Of a stretch of 64,000 nucleotides of DNA, positions 13,309 to 58,819 are shown piece by piece. The DNA comes from a bacterium (GTDB lineage: Bacteria > Patescibacteriota > Patescibacteriia > Patescibacteriales > JAKAJF01). Made by a program: the position numbers and the translations under genes. Location of the stretch: the NCBI GenBank assembly GCA_021788015.1, contig JAJYLD010000001.1:17581-81580 (forward strand), in the 5' to 3' direction. Every line of letters begins with the position of its first letter. Positions within the stretch are counted from its first letter, which is position 1. The notes beneath the pieces are model-generated. The model saw only the letters and a program-made list of their open reading frames with translations, was not told where the DNA came from and searched no databases.

Positions 13309-15831
13309 ATGCCCCTAAATACTTATCAGCAAAAGCGCGATTTTAAAAAGTCTCCGGAACCGAAAGGAGAACTGAAGGGGAGCAAAGGAAATTATTTGCA
13401 GTTTGTAATTCATAAGCATGACGCTTCCCATCCGCATTACGATTTAAGACTCGAGGGAGGAGGAGTCTTAAAAAGTTGGGCGATTCCGAAAGAACCGGAT
13501 TTGGATGCCGGTAAAAAAATTTTGGCGATAATGGTCGAGGATCATCCGTTCGATTACAAAAATTTCGAGGGCGTAATTCCGGAAGGAAATTACGGGGCGG
13601 GAACGGTAATGATTTGGGATAGCGGCGTTTATTACGCCATCGGAGCGTCAAACCGGGAAGAAAGCGAGAGAGAGATTTTGGATGGATTAAAAAAGGGGGA
13701 AATCGGTTTCGTCTTGGAGGGAAAAAAATTAAGAGGAGGGTTCTCGTTGGTAAAATTTAAAAAAGGGAAAGACAACAGCTGGCTATTGATTAAAAAAAAC
13801 GATCAGTTCGCAAACAAGGAAATTAAAGGCAAGGACATTTCAGTAAAAACCGGAAGAATGATGGAGGAAATAGCGGAGAATAAAAAAATAAAAAAGTTTG
13901 CGGGAAGATATTTGGAAATACATATTAAAGGGGCTCCTAGAGCTAAACTGCCGGAAATATATAAACCGATGCTGGCCCATTTAGTGAAGGAGCCTTTTAA
14001 TAGAAAAAATTGGTTGTTTGAAATAAAATACGACGGTTACAGGGCGATAGCGCGAATAGACGACGCCAGCGCGGAAATTTTTTCACGAAACGGCTTGAGT
14101 TTCAACGGTCGTTTTTCGTCGATAGCGGAATCTTTAAAGCATGTTCCTTATAAAGTCATTTTGGACGGAGAAATAGTCGTTACCGACAAACAAGGAAAAT
14201 CCGATTTCGGCCTTTTGCAAAATTATATAAAGACCGGCGACGGTTATCCGGTTTATTGCGTTTTCGACATTTTGCATTTTCAGGATTACGATTTAAAAAA
14301 TTTGCCGCTCGCGAAAAGAAAAGAGATTTTAAAAGAAATTTTGCCGGAACTTCCGAATGTAAAATATGTAAGCCATATTGAAGAAAGGGGAGAAGCTTTG
14401 TTTAAAATGACGGCCGAACGGGGAATCGAAGGCATAATCGCCAAAGACGAAGAAAGCGTTTACGAACCGGGTCAAAGAAGCGTCCATTGGCTGAAAATTA
14501 AAAAAATGAACCGGCAGGAGGCGGTTATCGGCGGCTTTACGGAACCGCGAGGCGAAAGAAGGGGAATCGGGGCTTTGGTTTTGGGAGTGTATGAAGACGA
14601 CGATCTTGTTTACATCGGCCATACCGGCGGGGCTTTTGCCGGAGAAAAACTCGCGGAGATGAGAAAAAGATTGAAGCCGTTAATCAAAAAAATTTCTCCG
14701 TTTAAGAAAGAACCGAAAACAAACGGAAAAGTCCATTGGGTTGAGCCGAAATTGGTTTGCGAAGCGAAATTTTCGAACTGGACAAAAGATGGCTATATGC
14801 GCCAGCCGATTTTTCTCGGACTCAGGGAGGATAAAAATCCACGCGAAATCAAAAGAGAAAAGGCGGAAGACGCGAAACTAATCGCCAAGGAGAGTAAGGG
14901 CGCGATTAAACATAAATTAAAAACGGCGGATAATTCGGAATTTAAAAATTTGGATAAAATTTTTTGGCCGAAAGAAGGTTACACTAAAGGAGACTTGTTG
15001 GACTATTATGAAAAAATCGCGCCGATAATTTTACCTTATTTGAAAGACAGGCCGGAATCGTTGCATCGTTTTCCTGACGGGGTAGAAGGGAAAAATTTTT
15101 TTCAGAAAAACATGGAAAAAATTCCGGGCGGGACGGAAACTAAAACGATTTATTCCGAAACGCAGGACAGGGAAATCAATTATATTTTATGCCAAGACAG
15201 GGAAACGCTTCTGTACCTTGTCAATTTGGGATGCATCGAATTAAATCCATGGAATTCAAGAATAAAAAGCTTGGACAATCCCGATTATATCGTTTTCGAT
15301 ATCGATCCGGGGGAAGCGCCTTTTCGGAAAGCGGTTCAAACGGCCTTGGTAACGCATGCGGTTTTGGGAGAGACGGGAGTAAAAAATTTTTGCAAGACAT
15401 CCGGAGCGACGGGATTGCACGTTTTTGTTCCCTTGGGAGGAAATTACAGTTATGAACAGGCGCGTGAATTCGTAAAACTGATAAATATCATTGTAAATGG
15501 CCGTCTGCCGAAAATAACGACCCTGGAGCGAAGCCCTGGCGAAAGGGACTCAAGAATTTATTTGGATTATTTGCAAAATCGAAAAGGGCAAACAACGGCT
15601 TCGGCTTACTCGGTCAGTCCTTTGCCCGGGGCCCCGGTTTCGACTCCTTTGAGATGGGAAGAAGTAAATTTTGATTTGAATCCGAAAAGTTTTAACATAA
15701 AAAATATTTTTGAAAGAATAAAAAAGATCGGAGATGTCTGGGAAGGAGTTCTCGGGGAAGGGATCGACATGGAAAAGGCTTTGCATAAATTGGAGCGATT
15801 TTTGGAAATTAAGAAGGGGGGTGGCTCATAA
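13309..15831 (+). CDS. ligD: ATP-dependent DNA ligase D (3'-phosphoesterase + ligase + polymerase/primase domains)
   Basis: 840 aa. The N-terminal PE domain has KRDFKKSPEPKG and FVIHKHDASHPHYDLRLE..GVLKSWAIPKEP. The ligase domain has adenylation motif EIKYDGYRA. The C-terminal LigD polymerase domain has LDKIFWPKEGYTKGDLLDYYEKIAP...SGATGLHVFVPL. Confidence 0.92.
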   Translation: MPLNTYQQKRDFKKSPEPKGELKGSKGNYLQFVIHKHDASHPHYDLRLEGGGVLKSWAIPKEPDLDAGKKILAIMVEDHPFDYKNFEGVIPEGNYGAGTVMIWDSGVYYAIGASNREESEREILDGLKKGEIGFVLEGKKLRGGFSLVKFKKGKDNSWLLIKKNDQFANKEIKGKDISVKTGRMMEEIAENKKIKKFAGRYLEIHIKGAPRAKLPEIYKPMLAHLVKEPFNRKNWLFEIKYDGYRAIARIDDASAEIFSRNGLSFNGRFSSIAESLKHVPYKVILDGEIVVTDKQGKSDFGLLQNYIKTGDGYPVYCVFDILHFQDYDLKNLPLAKRKEILKEILPELPNVKYVSHIEERGEALFKMTAERGIEGIIAKDEESVYEPGQRSVHWLKIKKMNRQEAVIGGFTEPRGERRGIGALVLGVYEDDDLVYIGHTGGAFAGEKLAEMRKRLKPLIKKISPFKKEPKTNGKVHWVEPKLVCEAKFSNWTKDGYMRQPIFLGLREDKNPREIKREKAEDAKLIAKESKGAIKHKLKTADNSEFKNLDKIFWPKEGYTKGDLLDYYEKIAPIILPYLKDRPESLHRFPDGVEGKNFFQKNMEKIPGGTETKTIYSETQDREINYILCQDRETLLYLVNLGCIELNPWNSRIKSLDNPDYIVFDIDPGEAPFRKAVQTALVTHAVLGETGVKNFCKTSGATGLHVFVPLGGNYSYEQAREFVKLINIIVNGRLPKITTLERSPGERDSRIYLDYLQNRKGQTTASAYSVSPLPGAPVSTPLRWEEVNFDLNPKSFNIKNIFERIKKIGDVWEGVLGEGIDMEKALHKLERFLEIKKGGGS

Positions 15832-21860: not shown

Positions 21861-21945
21861 AATTAAGAAGCAGGGCCCTGGCCCAACTTAAAAAACGCAT
21901 TCAAGAAAGTTTAAAATCATTTAAACATAATTGGTGTGGGGACGT

Positions 21946-23739
21946 ATGGAAATACGAAATATAGCTATAATAGCGCATGTTGATCATGGCAAAACAACTT
22001 TAACCGACGCGTTGATGCGGCAGACCGGGATGGCTGCCGAAGGCGTGAGTATGGATTCGAACGCTTTGGAACAGGAGCGGGGAATTACCATTTATTCAAA
22101 AAATACATCCGTTTTTTACAAAGATACGAAAATCAATATCGTCGATACCCCGGGTCATGCCGATTTCGGTTCCGAAGTCGAGCGCGTTTTAAGATCGATT
22201 GATTCCGTTCTCTTGGTGGTGGACGCGCAGGAAGGACCGATGCCCCAGACGAAATTCGTTTTGAAAAAATCGCTTGAGCTCGGTTTAAAACCAATCGTGG
22301 TGATAAACAAAATCGACAAACCCGCCGCCCGTCCCGACGCCGTTCATGAACTTGTTTTTGAATTATTCATGGACCTCGGAGCGAATGACGGGCAACTCGA
22401 TTTTACGACGGTTTACGCGATCGCAAAGCGGGGAATCGCAAAAATGAAGCTGGAAGACGATTCCAAAGACTTGGCCCCGCTACTCGACACGATTTTAAAA
22501 GAAGTGAAACCGGCTTCGTCGGACGAACTCGCGGATAAGCCGCTTCGCGCCCAGCCGTTCAATTTGGGTTATGACAATTTTCTCGGGCGGCTTGCCATCG
22601 GGAGAATTTACGAAGGAAAAATAAAAAGCGGCGAAAATGTTTTTGTCAAAAAAAATAACGGCGAAGCGAAACAGGGGAAAGTCGTAAAACTTTTTACTTT
22701 TCACGGACTCGACAAAAAAGAAGTCGACGAAGCGTCCGCCGGTGACATCGTCATGATCGCGGGGCTCTCGGACGCTTACATCGGCGACACTATTTGCGCA
22801 TCGCCGGATCAGGAACTTTTGCCGTCGATTGAAATAGACGAGCCCACGATTTCTTTGAATTTTTTAGTAAACAATTCCCCTTTTGCCGGCCGCGAAGGAA
22901 AGTTCGTCACTACTCGCCAAATTAAAGAAAGACTGGAAAAGGAACTCGAAATCAATGTCGGCTTGCGAATCGATTTTTCTTCATCCGACCATTATAAAGT
23001 TTATGGCCGCGGCGAACTACATATCGCCATTTTACTTGAAAATATGAGGCGCGAAGGTTATGAATTGCAGGTTTCGCAGCCGCATGTAATTATTAAAGAG
23101 GAAGGCGGACAAAAATTGGAACCGTTTGAAGAGGCGACAATCGATATTCCCGACGAAATGTCCGGAGTCGTGATTGAAAAAATGTCAAAACGAAAAGGAA
23201 CCATGACCGAGATGCGGCCGGAGCATGGTCATACGCGTCTGGTTTTTGAAATTCCGACGCGTGGGCTTTTGGGTTATCGCGGAGAATTCACGATCGATAC
23301 CCGCGGCGAAGGCATCCTTTGCACTCGGGTTATCGGTTTTAGGCCGCATGTCGGCGAGATCGAAAAGAATTATTTAGGCTCAATGATTTCCATGGCGACC
23401 GGCAAGGCTTTGGCGTTTTCGCTTTGGAATTTGCAGGAACGGGGGACTTTATATATCGGACCGAACACGGACGTTTACGAAGGCATGGTCATCGGCAATG
23501 TTTCGAAAGGAAATGATTTAACCGTCAACCCGATTAAGGGCAAACAGCTTACAAACATCCGCGCTTCCGGGTCGGACGAAGCGATTCGTTTGACTCCGCC
23601 GCTCGAACTCTCGCTCGAACGCGCTCTGGAAATTATGAATGATGATGAATATCTTGAAATCACGCCAAAAAGTATCCGCTTGCGCAAGCAGTATTTGACG
23701 GAAGTTGAAAGAGTGAGAGCGTTTAGAAAAAATTCGTAG
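21946..23739 (+). CDS. typA: translational GTPase TypA/BipA
   Basis: Start at MEIRNIAIIAHVDHGKTTLTDALM. G-motifs DTPGHADF and NKIDK. Full-length similarity pattern to BipA. Confidence 0.95.
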   Translation: MEIRNIAIIAHVDHGKTTLTDALMRQTGMAAEGVSMDSNALEQERGITIYSKNTSVFYKDTKINIVDTPGHADFGSEVERVLRSIDSVLLVVDAQEGPMPQTKFVLKKSLELGLKPIVVINKIDKPAARPDAVHELVFELFMDLGANDGQLDFTTVYAIAKRGIAKMKLEDDSKDLAPLLDTILKEVKPASSDELADKPLRAQPFNLGYDNFLGRLAIGRIYEGKIKSGENVFVKKNNGEAKQGKVVKLFTFHGLDKKEVDEASAGDIVMIAGLSDAYIGDTICASPDQELLPSIEIDEPTISLNFLVNNSPFAGREGKFVTTRQIKERLEKELEINVGLRIDFSSSDHYKVYGRGELHIAILLENMRREGYELQVSQPHVIIKEEGGQKLEPFEEATIDIPDEMSGVVIEKMSKRKGTMTEMRPEHGHTRLVFEIPTRGLLGYRGEFTIDTRGEGILCTRVIGFRPHVGEIEKNYLGSMISMATGKALAFSLWNLQERGTLYIGPNTDVYEGMVIGNVSKGNDLTVNPIKGKQLTNIRASGSDEAIRLTPPLELSLERALEIMNDDEYLEITPKSIRLRKQYLTEVERVRAFRKNS

Positions 23740-28963: not shown

Positions 28964-29977
28964 TTATGCGGTTATGTGCATTTCCTCTCTTTGAAAGTCA
29001 ACGACATGCTTCCCGACAAGTCTCTCGAAGATTGCGAGGTATCTCGCGGTCGTATCCGTAATGACTTTATCGGGAATCGGAAGGTTCGCGATGAAAGCGA
29101 GGTGTTCTTCGTTTTGCGGATCAAGAGTATGAATACCGACCGATCCGAAAGGAGTCCAGACCATTTTGCCCCATTGCCTTGCCGGTTCTTTGTCATAGCC
29201 GGAAGGCGATTTTTTCTGCTTCTGGGCCTCTTTATATTCTTTCAGGTCCCAGAGGCGGGAAGAGTCCGGGGTCAAGACCTCGTCCGCGAGGATGTAATTG
29301 ATTAACCCGTTTAGGATGAATCTGCCCCACTCGAACTTGGTGTCCGCGATGACTATGTCCTTACGCAAGGCGCAATCAGAAGCCCTGCTGAATATATCTA
29401 TCGAAAGCTTTGCTAGTTTGGGATCAACACTGTTAAAGTGGACATGCTCATCATGGCCAATTTGCGCCTTTGTGGTCGGCGTAAAAATCGGGCCGCCAGG
29501 AATGCGGGAGCCGTCGTGCAAACCGGGCGAAAGCTCTATTCCGCAAACCTGCCCGTTTTCTTTATATGATTTCCATCCCGATCCCGTGAGGATAGCGCGG
29601 ACTATGCATTCTTTGTCGACCATATCCAGTCTCTGCACCACGATGGCGCGCTTCTGTAATTCGGGGTCACCGCGGAGTTCGTAAGGCAGGAATTCGTCGA
29701 TACCGGCGCCGTAGGCCATTAGATGGTTGTCTATATAGGCGAGAACGCCGGTAAGCCAGAAGATTGTCATTGCTGTCAGAACCTCGCCCTTGAACGGAAC
29801 GAGACAGTTCAGGACGACATCAAAAATGCTCAGCCGTTCCGTAGCCAGGACGAGGTTGGTGGGGTATTTTGGGATCGCATAAGTATCCCTGACTTTCCCC
29901 TGATGAGTGCGCGGTAAGTATTTGAGAAGTTTTCTGCTCAAATCCGTTTCACGTACTACCTGTGGTATTTTTGCCAT
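28964..29977 (-). CDS. purC: phosphoribosylaminoimidazole-succinocarboxamide synthase (SAICAR synthetase), long form
   Basis: 337 aa. HQGKVRDTYAI...LVLATERLSIFDVVLNCLVPFKGEVLTAMTIFW matches PurC (GKVRD.Y...DR.SAFD....IP.KG..L...S.FWF). Terminator AAGGCAGA-ATCG-TCTGCCTT followed by T7 on the minus strand at 28937-28962. Confidence 0.85.
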   Translation of the reverse strand: MAKIPQVVRETDLSRKLLKYLPRTHQGKVRDTYAIPKYPTNLVLATERLSIFDVVLNCLVPFKGEVLTAMTIFWLTGVLAYIDNHLMAYGAGIDEFLPYELRGDPELQKRAIVVQRLDMVDKECIVRAILTGSGWKSYKENGQVCGIELSPGLHDGSRIPGGPIFTPTTKAQIGHDEHVHFNSVDPKLAKLSIDIFSRASDCALRKDIVIADTKFEWGRFILNGLINYILADEVLTPDSSRLWDLKEYKEAQKQKKSPSGYDKEPARQWGKMVWTPFGSVGIHTLDPQNEEHLAFIANLPIPDKVITDTTARYLAIFERLVGKHVVDFQREEMHITA

Positions 29978-30515
29978 TACGTCGCTTCCTCCTTTTTTCT
30001 TTTCGCCAATTCGGCGGCTTCCCTTATAGTCCTCGTTTTGGTCAATTTCGGAGTCGGGAGTTTAATTTCGGGAAGTTTGCCGTTCACCGCAAAGTGGCAA
30101 GCGCGTCTGAATCCGTCCTCGCCGATAAAGTCGCCCTGGTGGTCTTTGTATACGACCTGCGTTCCCGGTACTTTCTTTATACTCAGGATCGCGGCCAGCG
30201 TATCCTCTTCGGTTTTACCCTCAAAGGCGACACCGATCACTATCGTTTTTTGTTACGTACCATATATCTAAGGTACGCGTCGTCCGCGCCTGTTAATTGA
30301 TTGGCCATCCCCGCGCCGGTTACCAGAACATCGATATCGTCCATGTTCCAGAGATGCTCCCTTACTTCGTCCATGTTCCTATGAATACTGGCGGTTATGA
30401 CCGCCTTCACTTTTGCGGCGCCGACTACATCGGCTTCGTCAAGAAAACGCAAACCTTGAGCGCACTGCGGCAAATCGGAATCTGAACCGATCATGACTAA
30501 GATTTTTCTGATCAT
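29977..30515 (-). pseudogene. PurE/AIR-carboxylase-family gene interrupted by a frameshift in an A6 run
   Basis: N-terminal ORF: MIRKILVMIGSDSDLPQCAQGL...VLVTGAGMANQLTGADDAYLRYMVRNKKR*. Family sequence resumes one base out of frame as (KT)IVIGVAFEGKTEEDTLAAILSIKKVPGTQVV. The junction is AACAAAAAACGATAGTG (A6 at 30246-30251). Confidence 0.7.
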
Positions 30516-30624
30516 GAACACCCCCTTATGTATTTCTAAAACTAAAAAGAGCGAGTTAAAAACTCCTCCTGCATTTAATCTATAGTAAATTAGAAAAAAA
30601 TGCAAGAAAAAAGGCTTTGAAAAA

Positions 30625-31242
30625 TCAAAGCCAAAGACTTAATGCGAAAAAAGTGACATTAACAAGAAAATGCGAAGTCAAGGCGACCAAGAAGCCGTAT
30701 TTAACGAAAATAAAAGACAGAAACAAACCAATGAAAAAATGAGGAGTCACTACGAAAACATTTCTATTCGATTTCTCAAAATTATTAAGATGAGCCAGGC
30801 TCCAGACAAAATTGTATCCAAGCATGAGGCAATAAAACTGCGGTACGCCGGAAAAAAGAGAAAATCTCGGCACCCAGCCCAAAAAAATTCCTCTTGCGCC
30901 TTCTTCAATACAATTTGAACCGAAAACATTAAGAAAGAAACAAAGTAGATCCGATTTTTTCACTGAAGCTTCTTTCAGAAGTTCTCCAATTTTTGTCTCT
31001 TCGGTCGGTCCGATCAATCCTTCAATCATATTTCCCAAAGAAAGAGCGATAATGACCATAAGAAAGACAAGCCAGAGGACGTCATTTTTGAAAATGAAAA
31101 AAGTTAATTTCACTCTGACGATCTCTTTCGCTCCGCCGAGAAGAAATTTTGCCATATCCGCCCGGTTGAACAGGATTATCGTTATGACAAGAAGGTAAAA
31201 TGGAACCGTGAAAAAACGAAACGCTTTATTTTTAAAGGACAT
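30625..31242 (-). CDS. CPBP-family (CAAX/Abi) intramembrane protease
   Basis: 205 aa, polytopic. Motifs CIEEGARG (EExxxR), WSLAHL and LTSHFLVN (HxxxN). Confidence 0.75.
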   Translation of the reverse strand: MSFKNKAFRFFTVPFYLLVITIILFNRADMAKFLLGGAKEIVRVKLTFFIFKNDVLWLVFLMVIIALSLGNMIEGLIGPTEETKIGELLKEASVKKSDLLCFFLNVFGSNCIEEGARGIFLGWVPRFSLFSGVPQFYCLMLGYNFVWSLAHLNNFEKSNRNVFVVTPHFFIGLFLSFIFVKYGFLVALTSHFLVNVTFFALSLWL

Positions 31243-31322
31243 GTTTTTCCTCCCGTGTTTTTTTATTATTTTAAGTTATATTTCCGAATTGTCAAATAAA
31301 AAAAGCGGGTTTTTGTTCCGCT

Positions 31323-31421
31323 CTACTTTTTTGCGCGTTTGGAACGCGCTTTTTTACTTTGTTTCCTTTTGTTTTTCTTGTAGCCGCCACCGCATTTTTT
31401 CATGACAGCATATTTTTTCAT
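31323..31421 (-). CDS. 32-aa highly basic peptide ORF (not in track)
   Basis: ATG at 31421, 10 nt after GAGGAG. MKKYAVMKKCGGGYKKNKRKQSKKARSKRAKK*. Followed by terminator AGCGG-AACAAAAAC-CCGCT and T7. Confidence 0.35.
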   Translation of the reverse strand: MKKYAVMKKCGGGYKKNKRKQSKKARSKRAKK

Positions 31422-31428
31422 TTTTTAC

Positions 31429-32490
31429 TCAGCTCCTCTGGATTTTATCGAGCTCTGCCGGCTTGAATACTCCACGGTCTGTGATAATCCGGGTTATGTA
31501 TTTCGCCGGGGTCACATCGAAGCCGAGATTTACGGCCTCGGCGCCTTCGGGAGCGATCGCCTCTTCCCGGAAGTGCGTCAATTCTTTGGGAGACCGTTCC
31601 TCGATTTTAATCTCGTCTCCTGAATTAAGATTGAAATCGATTGTACTGGTCGGCGCCGCTACATAAAATGGAATGCCGTGCTCCTTGGCGAGGACGGCGA
31701 TCTGGTACGTACCGATTTTGTTCGCCGCATCGCCGTTCGCGACCACGCGGTCGGCGCCCACGACGACAACGTTGATTTTACCCTGGCGCATAAGAGCTCC
31801 GACGGCGCTATCCGCGACAAGAGAAGCGGGCACGCCCTCTTCAATGAGCTCATACATGGAAAGCTTTGAACCCTGATTCAGCGGGCGCGTTTCCGTCTGG
31901 AAAACATACTCCACCCTACCCGTACGGAAACCTCTAACGATAATGCCGAGAGCCGTACCTCCGCCGCCCACGACGGCGAGATTGCCCGTGTTTCAGTGAT
32001 GCAAAACACACGCGCCTTCGGGTAAAATCCCGAGGCCGTATGCTGAGATCGCTCGGTTTACTACTATATCTTCCCGTGCGATCGCAATGGCCTCGTCAAG
32101 AACCGCCTCCTTGATCTCAGCCGCGGTTTTCGTTTTGCGCGCTCTTTCCATAACTCTATCCAGACATTCGAACAGGTTCACCGCCGTCGGCCTCGTAGTC
32201 AATAATTCATCGGCCGCTGTCTCGAGATAGCGCAGAAGAAAAATGGCGTCTTCAGTCTCAGTCTCCTCCGAAGCGAGCACCATTCCGAACGCCCCCGCGG
32301 CTCCGATTGCCGGCGCGCCCCTGACGGCCATGTCTTTTATGGCTATGGCTACGTCTCCCCATGCGCGGCAAATAAGATACTCTGTTATTCCGGGCAACTT
32401 ACGCGTGTCCAGAATTTTTAGGATGTGTCCATCGTACGGTACGCCTCTCCACGTGAGCTGCAAAGTAGTTGAGGCAAATTCTGTTTGCAT
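31429..32490 (-). CDS. MtnA/eIF-2B-family sugar-phosphate isomerase (MTR-1-P or ribose-1,5-bisphosphate isomerase type) with in-frame UGA at the active-site Cys codon
   Basis: Track ORFs 31993-32535 and 31429-31971 are colinear in one frame: ...MAVRGAPAIGAAGAFGM...EGACVLHH-TGA-NTGNLAVVGGGGTALGII...ETRPLNQGSKL...VVVGADRVVANGDAANKIGT. The TGA is at 31993-31995. ATG at 32490 lies behind GGGGGTGA. Confidence 0.75.
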
Positions 32491-32634
32491 TTTCACCCCC
32501 ATTTTAGATTTAAAAAAAGAGCCGATCCAAATCAAGCTCCTCCTTTAAACTTAATCTAAGGCAAAATTAAAAATAATGCAAGGCGGGACGGAATAATAAA
32601 AAAGTTCGCGTCTAGCGAACTTGGATGCGCGGGT

Positions 32635-33867
32635 TTAACCCGCGTGTTTTCTGAAGCCCCGGTGTTCGGGGGCGAGGAAAGCGACAGACAGGCCGGCATC
32701 GGCGAAGAGCTGTTTTACCTCGTCCTTGTGCTGGCCATCACAAGGAACGACACCGCCCTTGCATCCGGCGTCAATGAGCAGCTCCGGCCCCTCGCGGCGG
32801 TCGGATTGGGAAACGAGACTGGAAATCTCGGAAAGGTAATTTAAGGCCTCTCTTTTCCCATCTCCGGTTTCCGCTGCGAGTGCGTCTTCCGCGGCTGCGT
32901 TTAAACCGCCGATTCTGTCTATTAATTTGTCAAGATCAGAAAGGTTGCCCTTAGCGTACGGGAAAAATGCATCGGAAGCAAACAGTGAATCCTTTGGATC
33001 ATGTCCGGCTCTATTCGCCCGTTCAAGGCAAAGGCGGACGCAGGCGATTCTGTCCTGCTGGCCGCAGCCCAAACCGATGAGCATCTGGTCCTTGGCGAGC
33101 GCGACTGTATTGCTCGATGCGAACCAGCAGCAGGCCCAGGCGATGATCAATGTCCCGAAATCAGTAATATTGGGTTTGCCTCTCATCGCAAGGGCAGGTA
33201 CATAATTGGTCCAATCAACCACCTCACTCGGAGTAAGATAAAACCCCGGAGCTCGCTGGACAAGCATGTCGGCGCCGATGCTCTTCCGTTCCCAAAGTCC
33301 GGGAAACGGCCTGGGATCAAGTAGCGCTTTATTGGCTATCAAACGTCTTTTTTCTCTCTTGCCGAGGAGCTCGATTGCTTCCTTTGAAAATGACGGCGCG
33401 AGTATGAGATCGAGTCCCCATTTTTTGCGGCCGATATCCGGGTCGTTCGGCACGGTAAAAAGTCCATCGGCAAGCCCCTCATCAATGGCAAAGTTGGTAA
33501 CCACCTCTCCGCCCATGACCGCGACAGAATCGCCCGTAAGCGCTTTGCGTATGGCCTTGGCTGGGTTGTCCCAATCATAAGCCGCGCCGCACGGATTGCC
33601 GTGCTTGCCGGCGACCGTGATATAAGGCATCTTGCCGGATGCTGCTTGCCTGAACGTTTCGGCGATGGTGCGCAAGATCGTGGTAATCTGGTATCCGTCG
33701 GCCATGGAAATATAGCTCGGCTCGCCGGAAACGATCTTAAATTTCGACATGGCCAACGGATCTCTAACCCCTTCAATCGACACAAGTGAAGCTGGATTTT
33801 GATACCGGTTCTCCGCGTAAGCGAGCTCCTTCGGAGTTCCTAACTTTATGTGGTTCGTTTTAGACAT
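32635..33867 (-). CDS. purH: AICAR formyltransferase (PurH C-terminal domain as a separate gene)
   Basis: Start MSKTNH at 33867 overlaps the stop of the upstream gene (ATGTCTAA). Motifs [59 protein letters not shown]. Confidence 0.8.
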
Positions 33868-34474
33868 CGGTTCCATCTCCGTCCTCGCCCATGGCCCGCG
33901 CGAGATAATCGGCAATCGTTCCGTCGTACCGAGACATCAGTTCGAAGACTTTTTTGGCAAGCCCGAGCCTGGTTTCTCTGTCGACCTGTCCGTTGTCGCT
34001 CATCTTTTTGAGAATCATATCGTAGTCATGCGGATCGACCACGACCACCACGCTTTCGAAGTTCTTGGCCGCGGCGCGAATCATTGTCGGCCCGCCAATG
34101 TCGATATTCTCGATGGCATCCTCGAATGTGCAGTTCGGTTTCGCGATCGTTTTCTCGAACGGGTAGAGGTTCACGACAACCATGTCGATCATCCCGATTC
34201 CGTGCTTTGCCGCTTCCGTCATATCTGCCTGCACATGCCTGCGCGCGAGTATGCCGCCGTGGATTTTCGGGTGAAGCGTCTTCACTCTCCCGTCCATCAT
34301 CTCGGGGGAGCCTGTGTAAGTGGAAACATCGATGACAGGAATGTCGGCGTCTTTAAGAGTCTTTGCCGTGCCGCCGGTCGAGATGATCTCGACACCCATT
34401 TCCGAAAGTCCCCGCGCAAAGTTCACAAGCCCGGTTTTGTCCGAAACACTGATTAACGTTCTTTTAATTTTCAT
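33860..34474 (-). CDS. purH: IMP cyclohydrolase (PurH N-terminal MGS-like domain as a separate gene)
   Basis: [35 protein letters not shown]...[25 protein letters not shown]...[16 protein letters not shown]. Confidence 0.85.
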
Positions 34475-57778: not shown

Positions 57779-58819
57779 ATGCAAGATTTCAAAAATTATT
57801 CGATAAAGAAAAAAAAGTCCTTTAATGTTTTGGCCAGTCCGCTAGCGGTTATTTTTTTGATAATCATTATCGGGTTGATTGCCCTCTTTTTCTTATCCGG
57901 AAATCACGGCGGAAAAAGTGGAAACGGCAAGTTGGTCATAGCCTCAACCGGGTCGCCGGCAAATGCAGGCGATGCCAAAAATAATGGCGCGGCCCATAAA
58001 CCGCCGGCTTTTGATATTGCTAAGCGTAAAAGCCTGCCCATGGATAATGAAACAGGTTACCTTAATTGGATGTTGACAAATACTCCTGAAAAAAAAGATT
58101 ATTTGATGGCTAAATGGGATCGTGCTCAGGCGGTTATCGCAAATCAAGATGCCACTGACCCGCGAGTCATTGAGGCGTTCTTGCGCGCACCGCGGGAATT
58201 TTTCTTTAACGCCGGAAGCGCTCAAGCGGCTTATGCCATGCCGGCCGCGCCGATCGGCTATGGCCAAACTATCTCCGGACCGCACCTGGTGTCCCGCATG
58301 ACGCAAGCTATCGATCCAAAACCGAATCAAAAAGTGCTCGAGATCGGAACCGGATCGGGTTACCAATCCTCCGTGCTAGCCGAACTTTCCAATTATGTTT
58401 ATACTATTGAGATAGTGCCTCAATTGGCGCAAAAAGACGATGCAAATTATACCAAGCTGTCCCAATATTATCCCGAGTACGCGAATATCAAACGAAAAAA
58501 TGCCGATGGTTATTACGGCTGGCCGGAATATGCGCCGTTTGACAGAATAATCGTCACTTGTGGTATCGATCATGTCCCTCCGGAACTGTTGAAAGAGCTG
58601 GCGCCCGGTGGTATTATGGTTATTCCGGTCGGTCCGCCTTCCGGGCAAACTGTGCTCAAAATCACCAAAGAAGTCGCATCCGACGGTTCGATAACTTTTA
58701 AGCGCGAAGACATTTATCATGGCAAGAAAGTAATTTTTGTGCCTTTTACCGCCGGACAAGGTCAAATCCATTCAAATTCCATTGATTCAAATGCCACCAG
58801 TTCAAGCGCCTCCAAATAA
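57779..58819 (+). CDS. pcm: protein-L-isoaspartate O-methyltransferase with N-terminal membrane anchor and linker
   Basis: IGYGQTISGPHLVSRMTQAI...VLEIGTGSGYQSSVLAEL...VYTIEIVPQLA...FDRIIVTCG. Preceded by a TM helix (VLASPLAVIFLIIIIGLIALFFL). Confidence 0.85.
   Translation: MQDFKNYSIKKKKSFNVLASPLAVIFLIIIIGLIALFFLSGNHGGKSGNGKLVIASTGSPANAGDAKNNGAAHKPPAFDIAKRKSLPMDNETGYLNWMLTNTPEKKDYLMAKWDRAQAVIANQDATDPRVIEAFLRAPREFFFNAGSAQAAYAMPAAPIGYGQTISGPHLVSRMTQAIDPKPNQKVLEIGTGSGYQSSVLAELSNYVYTIEIVPQLAQKDDANYTKLSQYYPEYANIKRKNADGYYGWPEYAPFDRIIVTCGIDHVPPELLKELAPGGIMVIPVGPPSGQTVLKITKEVASDGSITFKREDIYHGKKVIFVPFTAGQGQIHSNSIDSNATSSSASK

Follow-up and report, generated by a model that had tools for sequence, protein, structure and literature searches.

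An MtnA-family isomerase gene with an in-frame UGA at its catalytic cysteine codon: a candidate for a new selenoprotein family

The mtnA gene and its in-frame UGA

We have analysed a 64,000-nucleotide (nt) stretch of bacterial DNA, here called the window (contig JAJYLD010000001.1 of assembly GCA_021788015.1), whose minus strand carries a gene of the MtnA family with an in-frame UGA in place of the codon for the catalytic cysteine (Cys). All coordinates are positions within the window, and codon and residue numbers are counted from the ATG at 32490. Two minus-strand open reading frames (ORFs) of 180 amino acids (aa) each, 31993-32535 and 31429-31971, share the same frame, and their sole separator is the TGA at 31995-31993. 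The following features make up the locus.

31429-32490, minus strand: mtnA (S-methyl-5-thioribose-1-phosphate isomerase family), 353 codons plus stop, with a single in-frame UGA at codon 166
31993-31995, minus strand: the UGA, at the invariant catalytic Cys position (THCN motif) and proposed as a selenocysteine (Sec) codon; placed by structure and homologue alignments
31957-31982, minus strand: candidate bacterial selenocysteine insertion sequence (SECIS) hairpin, AUCUCGCCGUC / GUG loop / GGCGGC(G)GAGGU, from folding
31750-31752, minus strand: codon of D247, the conserved catalytic Asp of the GADR motif, intact 3' of the UGA and an invariant alignment column
32494-32500, minus strand: Shine-Dalgarno-like GGGGGUG, 3 nt 5' of the ATG at 32490, read from the sequence
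32602-32622, minus strand: terminator-like hairpin and T-run between purH(C) and mtnA
Peptide across the UGA if it is read as Sec: HH-U-NTGNLAVVGGGGTALGIIVR in the window mtnA, ILTH-U-NAGALATVGYGTALGVVR in the second lineage described below

The position of the terminator-like hairpin suggests that mtnA forms its own transcription unit.

What does the read-through product look like? It runs ...EGACVLHH, UGA, NTGNLAVVGGGGTALGII... and, scored with the in-frame stop substituted by C, it reaches 400.2 bits with TIGR00512, the MtnA equivalog (cut-off 279), and 400.8 bits with NF004326 (cut-off 271). With TIGR00511, which describes ribose-1,5-bisphosphate isomerase, the score of 184 bits lies under the cut-off of 314; given this result and the 400 bits for MtnA, the protein is not filed as a ribose-1,5-bisphosphate isomerase. 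The shared frame and the TIGR00512 score bear out the original prediction that the two ORFs are one colinear gene, and its placement of the UGA exactly on the conserved Cys agrees with both structure and homologue alignments. The top solved structure for the product is T. maritima 1T9K (E = 3e-88). The UGA aligns to the invariant Cys of (T/H)HCN(T/A)G in the solved structures, in a 15-sequence MAFFT alignment and in comparisons with up to 236 homologues. Among 243 full-length database homologues this column holds Cys in 237, and the remaining six, entered as 'W', are TGA codons of the second lineage translated under genetic code 4. The window protein keeps D247 and 84 of the 91 columns that are conserved at >=95%, and the motifs THxN(T/A)G, GTALG, ETRP, GADR, NGDxANKIGT and PFYVAAP are all found in it. 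The codon itself, TGA, does not supply the catalytic Cys of MtnA; a chemical equivalent would require the UGA to be decoded as Sec. The Cys of this site and the Asp of GADR reportedly form the catalytic pair, according to structural papers on B. subtilis MtnA and T. kodakarensis ribose-1,5-bisphosphate isomerase, and Tamura et al. reportedly assigned the catalytic Cys of B. subtilis MtnA to Cys160 in 2008. In the window gene 93 codons are one substitution away from a stop (110 single-base paths), 26 of them one step from TGA, and the chance that a random nonsense mutation strikes the Cys codon is ~1-4%.

The Logan assembly of run SRR13170411 matches the window at every one of 13,289 bases and reproduces the TGA, the frameshift in a neighbouring purE-like gene and a split purH. 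This assembly represents the same population; it excludes an assembler error, which we reject, and is compatible with a real mutation. TGA terminates 19 of the 60 long ORFs of the window, those of full-length RtcB and CysS included, and no second long ORF broken by an in-frame TGA was found among the window ORFs, in line with the earlier view that a global reassignment of UGA is unlikely; we reject reassignment on both counts. Together, the identity of the Logan assembly, the use of TGA as a regular stop and the lack of any other in-frame TGA point to a real, isolated UGA under the standard code.

The candidate SECIS hairpin comprises 11 base pairs (bp) and a GUG triloop and extends 10-36 nt past the UGA, with the loop starting 21 nt past it and an upper stem of 8 uninterrupted bp. 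Folded as a 31-mer it gives -14.2 kcal/mol (z = -2.42), and 2 of 200 shuffles fold equally well. A compact hairpin 3' of the UGA had been noted before; it is real and longer than described, occupying 31982-31957. Bacterial SECIS elements lie directly 3' of the UGA, within the coding region, and carry a small apical loop that contains G (PMC1088965), and the stem-loop position and small G-containing loop of the candidate agree with this description as far as sequence can tell. Rfam yielded no relevant family, neither for the whole window at the gathering threshold nor for the 161 nt around the UGA at E up to 10.

The hairpin also coincides with an anomaly in the peptide. Its arms encode L-A-V-V-G-G-G-G, and between L-A and G-T-A-L-G, where the homologues have T-x-x-(Y/F), the window protein has VVGGG. 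This segment begins with T in 242 of the 243 homologues, ends with Y or F in 240 and is four residues long in 238, whereas in the window it is five residues long. Atypical residues exactly at the RNA stem would be the pattern expected of a coding-region SECIS that constrains the peptide it encodes.

A second lineage with UGA at the same codon

A degenerate DNA pattern, TGA followed by N-(T/A)-G-x-L-A...G-T-A-L-G, was scanned over a metagenome collection and yielded one true match (L083) together with one chance match in a phage-like contig (L084), which was rejected. The L083 mtnA, at 118-1167 of its contig, is of low GC content and Tissierellales-like, with one in-frame TGA, again at the Cys codon. 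Its product is 69% identical to the nearest Cys-type forms, from Anaerosalibacter and Tissierella, and only 44% identical to the window protein, which argues for an independent origin of the two UGA-type genes. In all, this second lineage is represented by 16 contigs (ENA, JGI, Logan and two NCBI metagenome-assembled genomes) from more than 10 samples, all with the TGA at codon 157 and otherwise free of lesions.

Second-lineage mtnA loci: L083, L086-L096 and L100-L103, for example NCBI DGZX01000016.1 and DHRJ01000020.1, and JGI Ga0134835_1006878

Is the part of the gene beyond the UGA under selection? The allele comparison took in twelve of the 16 contigs and distinguished 8 alleles; the remaining four were checked just for the TGA and for the absence of other stops. 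Synonymous divergence among the alleles reaches 0.14, and pairwise dN/dS is 0.02-0.33 upstream of the TGA and 0.05-0.19 downstream of it. At the segregating sites 3' of the TGA we counted ~21 synonymous and 7-8 non-synonymous changes, where the neutral synonymous fraction would be 0.24; a scripted count of the same sites gave 23 and 6 (P = 4e-10), the difference being that the script took the two-base Ala/Leu change at codon 241 for synonymous. The organism writes Trp as TGG 13 times and has an in-frame TGA once, and TGA ends its dltA and dltD genes. Purifying selection, TGG for Trp and TGA as a stop together imply that the C-terminal half is translated and the UGA recoded. On the evidence of these sequences the second-lineage mtnA is clearly read through, so that an MtnA with UGA at the Cys codon does occur as a functional form.

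The second lineage has its own hairpin, UACCGUA-GGU-UACGGUA, with 7 bp and a G-first triloop, 24 nt past the UGA. It is written in codons that are rare in this organism (ACC GUA GGU UAC GGU): ACC accounts for 9 of 125 Thr codons and UAC for 7 of 77 Tyr codons, and through these two rare choices G-C pairs stand where two G·U pairs would otherwise be. In Cys-type relatives the identical peptide TVGYG is encoded with ACU or ACA and UAU, and their RNA folds weakly (-4.4 vs -7.8 kcal/mol for the second lineage). Glycine-reductase selenoproteins are common in the group to which the relatives of this lineage belong. We regard the second lineage as a strong candidate for a new selenoprotein, stronger than the window gene itself, and this holds even if the window copy is dead.

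In public protein sets (P0244 and its cluster members) the second-lineage gene appears either as two 'partial MtnA' fragments of 156 and 144 aa or as a 349-aa product with a 'W'. The 'W' arises because the gene caller used genetic code 4 on short, low-GC contigs, and the DNA reads TGA at every such locus; the Trp call is an artefact of annotation, and it masks in-frame UGA codons. One further member, P0367, from a JGI contig and known only as protein, appears to have lost ~30 nt, with a frameshift, past the ETRARLQG region, which would make it a dead allele of one strain unless the assembly is wrong.

Selenocysteine insertion and competing explanations

We propose that the window gene encodes a full-length aldose-ketose isomerase of the MtnA family whose catalytic Cys is replaced by Sec, and from sequence we put the probability of this reading at roughly 0.55. 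UGA-166 would be recoded co-translationally: the hairpin with the GUG triloop, 10-36 nt past the UGA, would act as the SECIS and recruit SelB·GTP·Sec-tRNASec to the ribosome, and translation would proceed into the C-terminal half, which bears the catalytic Asp and the remaining invariant motifs. In the enzyme a selenolate would then replace the thiolate in the isomerization of (methylthio)ribose-1-phosphate, or of a related ribose-1-phosphate, to the ribulose form. We infer that Sec is the residue inserted, that the organism possesses selA, selB, selC and selD and that the window gene is functional. Sec is favoured because a random nonsense mutation would have only a ~1-4% chance of striking this codon, because a hairpin follows it, because the peptide anomaly has the shape of a SECIS and because the second lineage offers proof of principle. 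By extension, MtnA may be an uncatalogued, non-redox selenoprotein family in which Sec has replaced Cys at least twice independently, each time with a SECIS superimposed on the LA-T-x-x-Y-GTALG segment; we give this broader proposal an even chance.

Several observations weigh against the Sec reading. The step from TGY to TGA needs one substitution, and Sec typically occurs in redox enzymes, among which an isomerase would be atypical. Neither selA, selB, selD nor tRNA-Sec was found in the window or in 4 kb of extra flank, which extends the earlier statement that the window contains no sel genes, and the same DNA contains no further selenoprotein candidate. The TGA allele of the window comes from a single population, and no relative of the gene more than 53% identical was found in the searches. 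Of the 91 conserved columns, 7 deviate from consensus in the window MtnA, against an average of 0.7 and a maximum of 6 in the 236 homologues, although the second lineage, which is under selection, also deviates at 5. Its C-terminal half is 53% identical to homologues vs 59% expected from the N-terminal half. Two genes downstream of mtnA, the purE-like gene is frameshifted.

The RNA evidence has its own counterweights. Taken whole, the 60 nt that follow the UGA are unexceptional against shuffles (z = -0.56), and we set aside 60-nt folding energy as uninformative for recognizing a SECIS; GC-rich Cys-type genes are, on average, equally stable in this region. By broad SECIS-like criteria an uninterrupted stem of at least 7 bp occurs in 10% of 79 Cys-type genes. 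By tighter criteria (a loop of 3-8 nt, G within the first two loop positions and a loop start 16-30 nt past the UGA), set only after the hairpins had been seen, a stem of at least 7 bp occurs in 1 of 82 Cys-type genes and one of at least 8 bp in none of the 82, against 8 bp in the window and 7 bp in the second lineage. Given that these criteria are post hoc and that GC-rich Cys-type genes are of comparable stability, we treat the hairpin evidence as supportive, not decisive.

Database searches describe how isolated the window gene is. Its best matches are 49-53% identical and all have Cys; no relative above 53% identity was found among 5.8 billion proteins with full-length and N-terminal-half queries, and among GTDB representative genomes none was closer than 53% among the matches listed, in a scan saturated by the conserved KEHGIPFY pattern. 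A search for database N-terminal fragments that end just before the Cys returned only the window's own among the 120 matches listed. Other genes behave similarly: BipA (21931-23739, plus strand) is at best 55% identical to a protein in a set of 1.84 billion representatives, or 61% identical to one partial 'Paceibacterota' fragment, and the four window proteins that were checked are all singleton clusters. Both results indicate a sparsely sampled lineage. The original prediction had proposed an alignment of orthologs to distinguish a Sec gene from a fresh pseudogene, two outcomes between which it did not choose. The alignment answers in two ways, with Cys in the best database matches and UGA plus a hairpin in the distant second lineage; through that lineage and the hairpin the Sec alternative has become considerably stronger, and the pseudogene alternative stands for this one genome. 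Fresh and stranded pseudogene taken together are the main rival, somewhat less likely than Sec.

According to the fresh-pseudogene alternative, a single recent TGY-to-TGA transversion struck the catalytic Cys codon, and the hairpin arose incidentally from GC-rich codons for Gly, Ala and Val. One mutational step suffices for it, and it fits an allele known from one population, a neighbour frameshifted at an A6 run, the largest number of conserved-column departures in the sample with a slightly under-conserved C-terminal half, an unremarkable 60-nt folding energy and a window and flank of 4 kb in which no Sec machinery was seen. However, it must take 1 specific path of ~110 stop-accessible single-base paths, and this path must coincide with a locally significant hairpin at SECIS distance whose arms encode precisely the residues deviating from the near-invariant T-x-x-Y/F. 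Moreover, the identical UGA-at-Cys arrangement is functional in another lineage, on the evidence of selection, and the pseudogene load is otherwise low, the purE-like gene alone being broken among ~60 window ORFs. We consider a fresh pseudogene unlikely, though it deserves serious weight.

The UGA and the hairpin could also descend from a Sec-using donor or ancestor and now be stranded in a host that lacks Sec machinery, or has lost it, and makes a truncated product. This would account both for the SECIS-like features and for the decay of purE nearby, and it suits a sparsely sampled lineage. The block purC-purE-(membrane ORF)-mtnA-purH (28964-34474) has the highest GC and GC3 of the window (GC 0.50-0.55 vs a mean of 0.44), compatible with a foreign origin; either a transferred island or simply a set of conserved enzymes could explain this. 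The high GC leaves room for a transferred selenoprotein gene stranded without its machinery, but it is weak evidence of transfer, since conserved metabolic genes are often GC-richer than hypothetical genes. Against this scenario mtnA has no additional lesions, and no mobile-element signature adjoins it. We hold it to be improbable.

Decoding of the UGA as one of the standard amino acids, be it Trp, Cys or Gly, through code reassignment or leaky near-cognate read-through, has on its side that public gene callers gave the second-lineage TGA as Trp under genetic code 4; it appears very improbable in view of the 19 of 60 window ORFs that end in TGA, the TGG-encoded Trp and TGA-terminated dltA and dltD of the second lineage, and the inactivation that Trp or Gly in place of the catalytic Cys would bring. 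A one-base sequencing or assembly error can be discounted almost entirely on the strength of the identical Logan assembly, TGA included.

The neighbourhood of the gene was inspected for signs of decay. The divergent PurE/AIR-carboxylase-like gene (29977-30605, minus strand) is split at an A6 run near 30246-30251 (AAAAAAC), as the original prediction had recognized, and an extra A or a -1 slip restores the frame to ...RNKKTIVIGVAFEG...; mutation, phase variation and programmed slippage are all conceivable causes of the frameshift. No broken gene besides it was found among the ~60 window ORFs. The purH gene consists of two overlapping ORFs, 32635-33876 and 33860-34474 (minus strand), whose stop and start overlap at 33867-33860 (ATGTCTAA); since the split falls in the linker between IMPCH and AICARFT, with overlapping stop and start, we reject it as local decay, and it looks like a natural two-gene arrangement, not a frameshift pseudogene. 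TAA or TAG interruptions in accessory genes, which the original prediction had counted against Sec, did not hold up: the ORF pairs concerned are distinct neighbours (HlyD/ABC and ABC/permease) or have no family match. The minus-strand ORFs 57944-58366 (140 aa) and 58376-58771 (131 aa) share a frame, with one TAG between them, and match no family; they may be one interrupted gene or two separate genes.

Other features of the window are recorded here for completeness. Between mtnA and the purE-like gene lies a gene for a hydrophobic, probably membrane, protein of 205 aa with no Pfam match (30625-31242, minus strand). A 32-codon ORF for a very basic peptide (MKKYAVMKKCGGGYKKNKRKQSKKARSKRAKK; 31323-31421, minus strand) begins 8 nt past the mtnA stop, and terminator-like hairpins, scored on the plus strand, occur at and just past its 3' end. 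Elsewhere, tandem c-di-GMP-II-GAG riboswitch aptamers (RF03169; 12808-12900 and 12965-13053, plus strand; 61.6 and 43 bits) sit upstream of an 840-aa, three-domain LigD (13309-15831), an unusual gene for c-di-GMP control. The gene content of the window (GGDEF, a two-component system, ECF sigma factors, LigD, CorA and Nramp) looks like that of a free-living organism and not CPR-like, as judged from the genes present.

Relation to known selenoproteins and MtnA enzymes

What would a Sec-containing MtnA mean? Almost all known selenoproteins are oxidoreductases. If the reading is true, Sec as nucleophile or base of a sugar-phosphate isomerase widens the chemistry for which Sec is selected, and the family offers a clean Sec/Cys pair for testing selenium preference, for example for a selenolate that is ionized at low pH in fermentative habitats. 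Because public calls split or mistranslate UGA-type mtnA, these genomes are scored as defective in methionine or 5'-deoxyadenosine salvage. We found no report of a Sec-containing MtnA in the literature searched, which did not take in Haft's two papers on new families of selenoproteins. A 2026 review covers 119 prokaryotic selenoprotein families and subfamilies; a text search of it did not find MtnA (PF01008/TIGR00512), and the one 'isomerase' in it resembles thiol-disulfide isomerase (PMC13188914). Nor is a Sec-MtnA mentioned in the deep-Sep and BSepDB papers.

The fold family of the window protein includes ribose-1,5-bisphosphate isomerase (e2b2; T. kodakarensis 3A11, P. horikoshii 5YFS), for which an equivalent catalytic Cys/Asp pair was reportedly described by Nakamura et al. 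in 2012. Cys-type MtnA enzymes (B. subtilis 2YVK/2YRF, T. maritima 1T9K, P. horikoshii 6A34) have full-length, colinear homology to it; the window protein differs from them in the UGA for Cys, in VVGGG (five residues) for T-x-x-Y/F (four) and in six further departures from conserved columns. The UGA-type MtnA of the second lineage, a spore-former, shares with the window the TGA codon, the hairpin and an otherwise intact gene. However, it keeps the peptide T-V-G-Y and builds its hairpin from rare synonymous codons, it lies in a deoR-mtnA-aldolase/PNP salvage operon whereas the window mtnA sits between purine genes, and selection on it is measurable and strongly purifying.

With bacterial genes that carry a coding-region SECIS (E. 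coli fdhF and the Sec/Cys families of Zhang and Gladyshev; PMC1088965, PMC13188914) the window gene has in common a UGA aligned to the Cys of homologues, an ORF-internal stem-loop directly 3' of the UGA whose small apical loop contains G and lies ~20 nt away, and a TGA-containing homologue in another organism. It differs from them in that bacterial selenoprotein genes mostly encode oxidoreductases, whereas MtnA is a non-redox sugar-phosphate isomerase, and in that no Sec machinery was found near it, in the window or its 4 kb of flank. The mechanism that we propose for this gene is already known; the family and its non-redox chemistry would be new.

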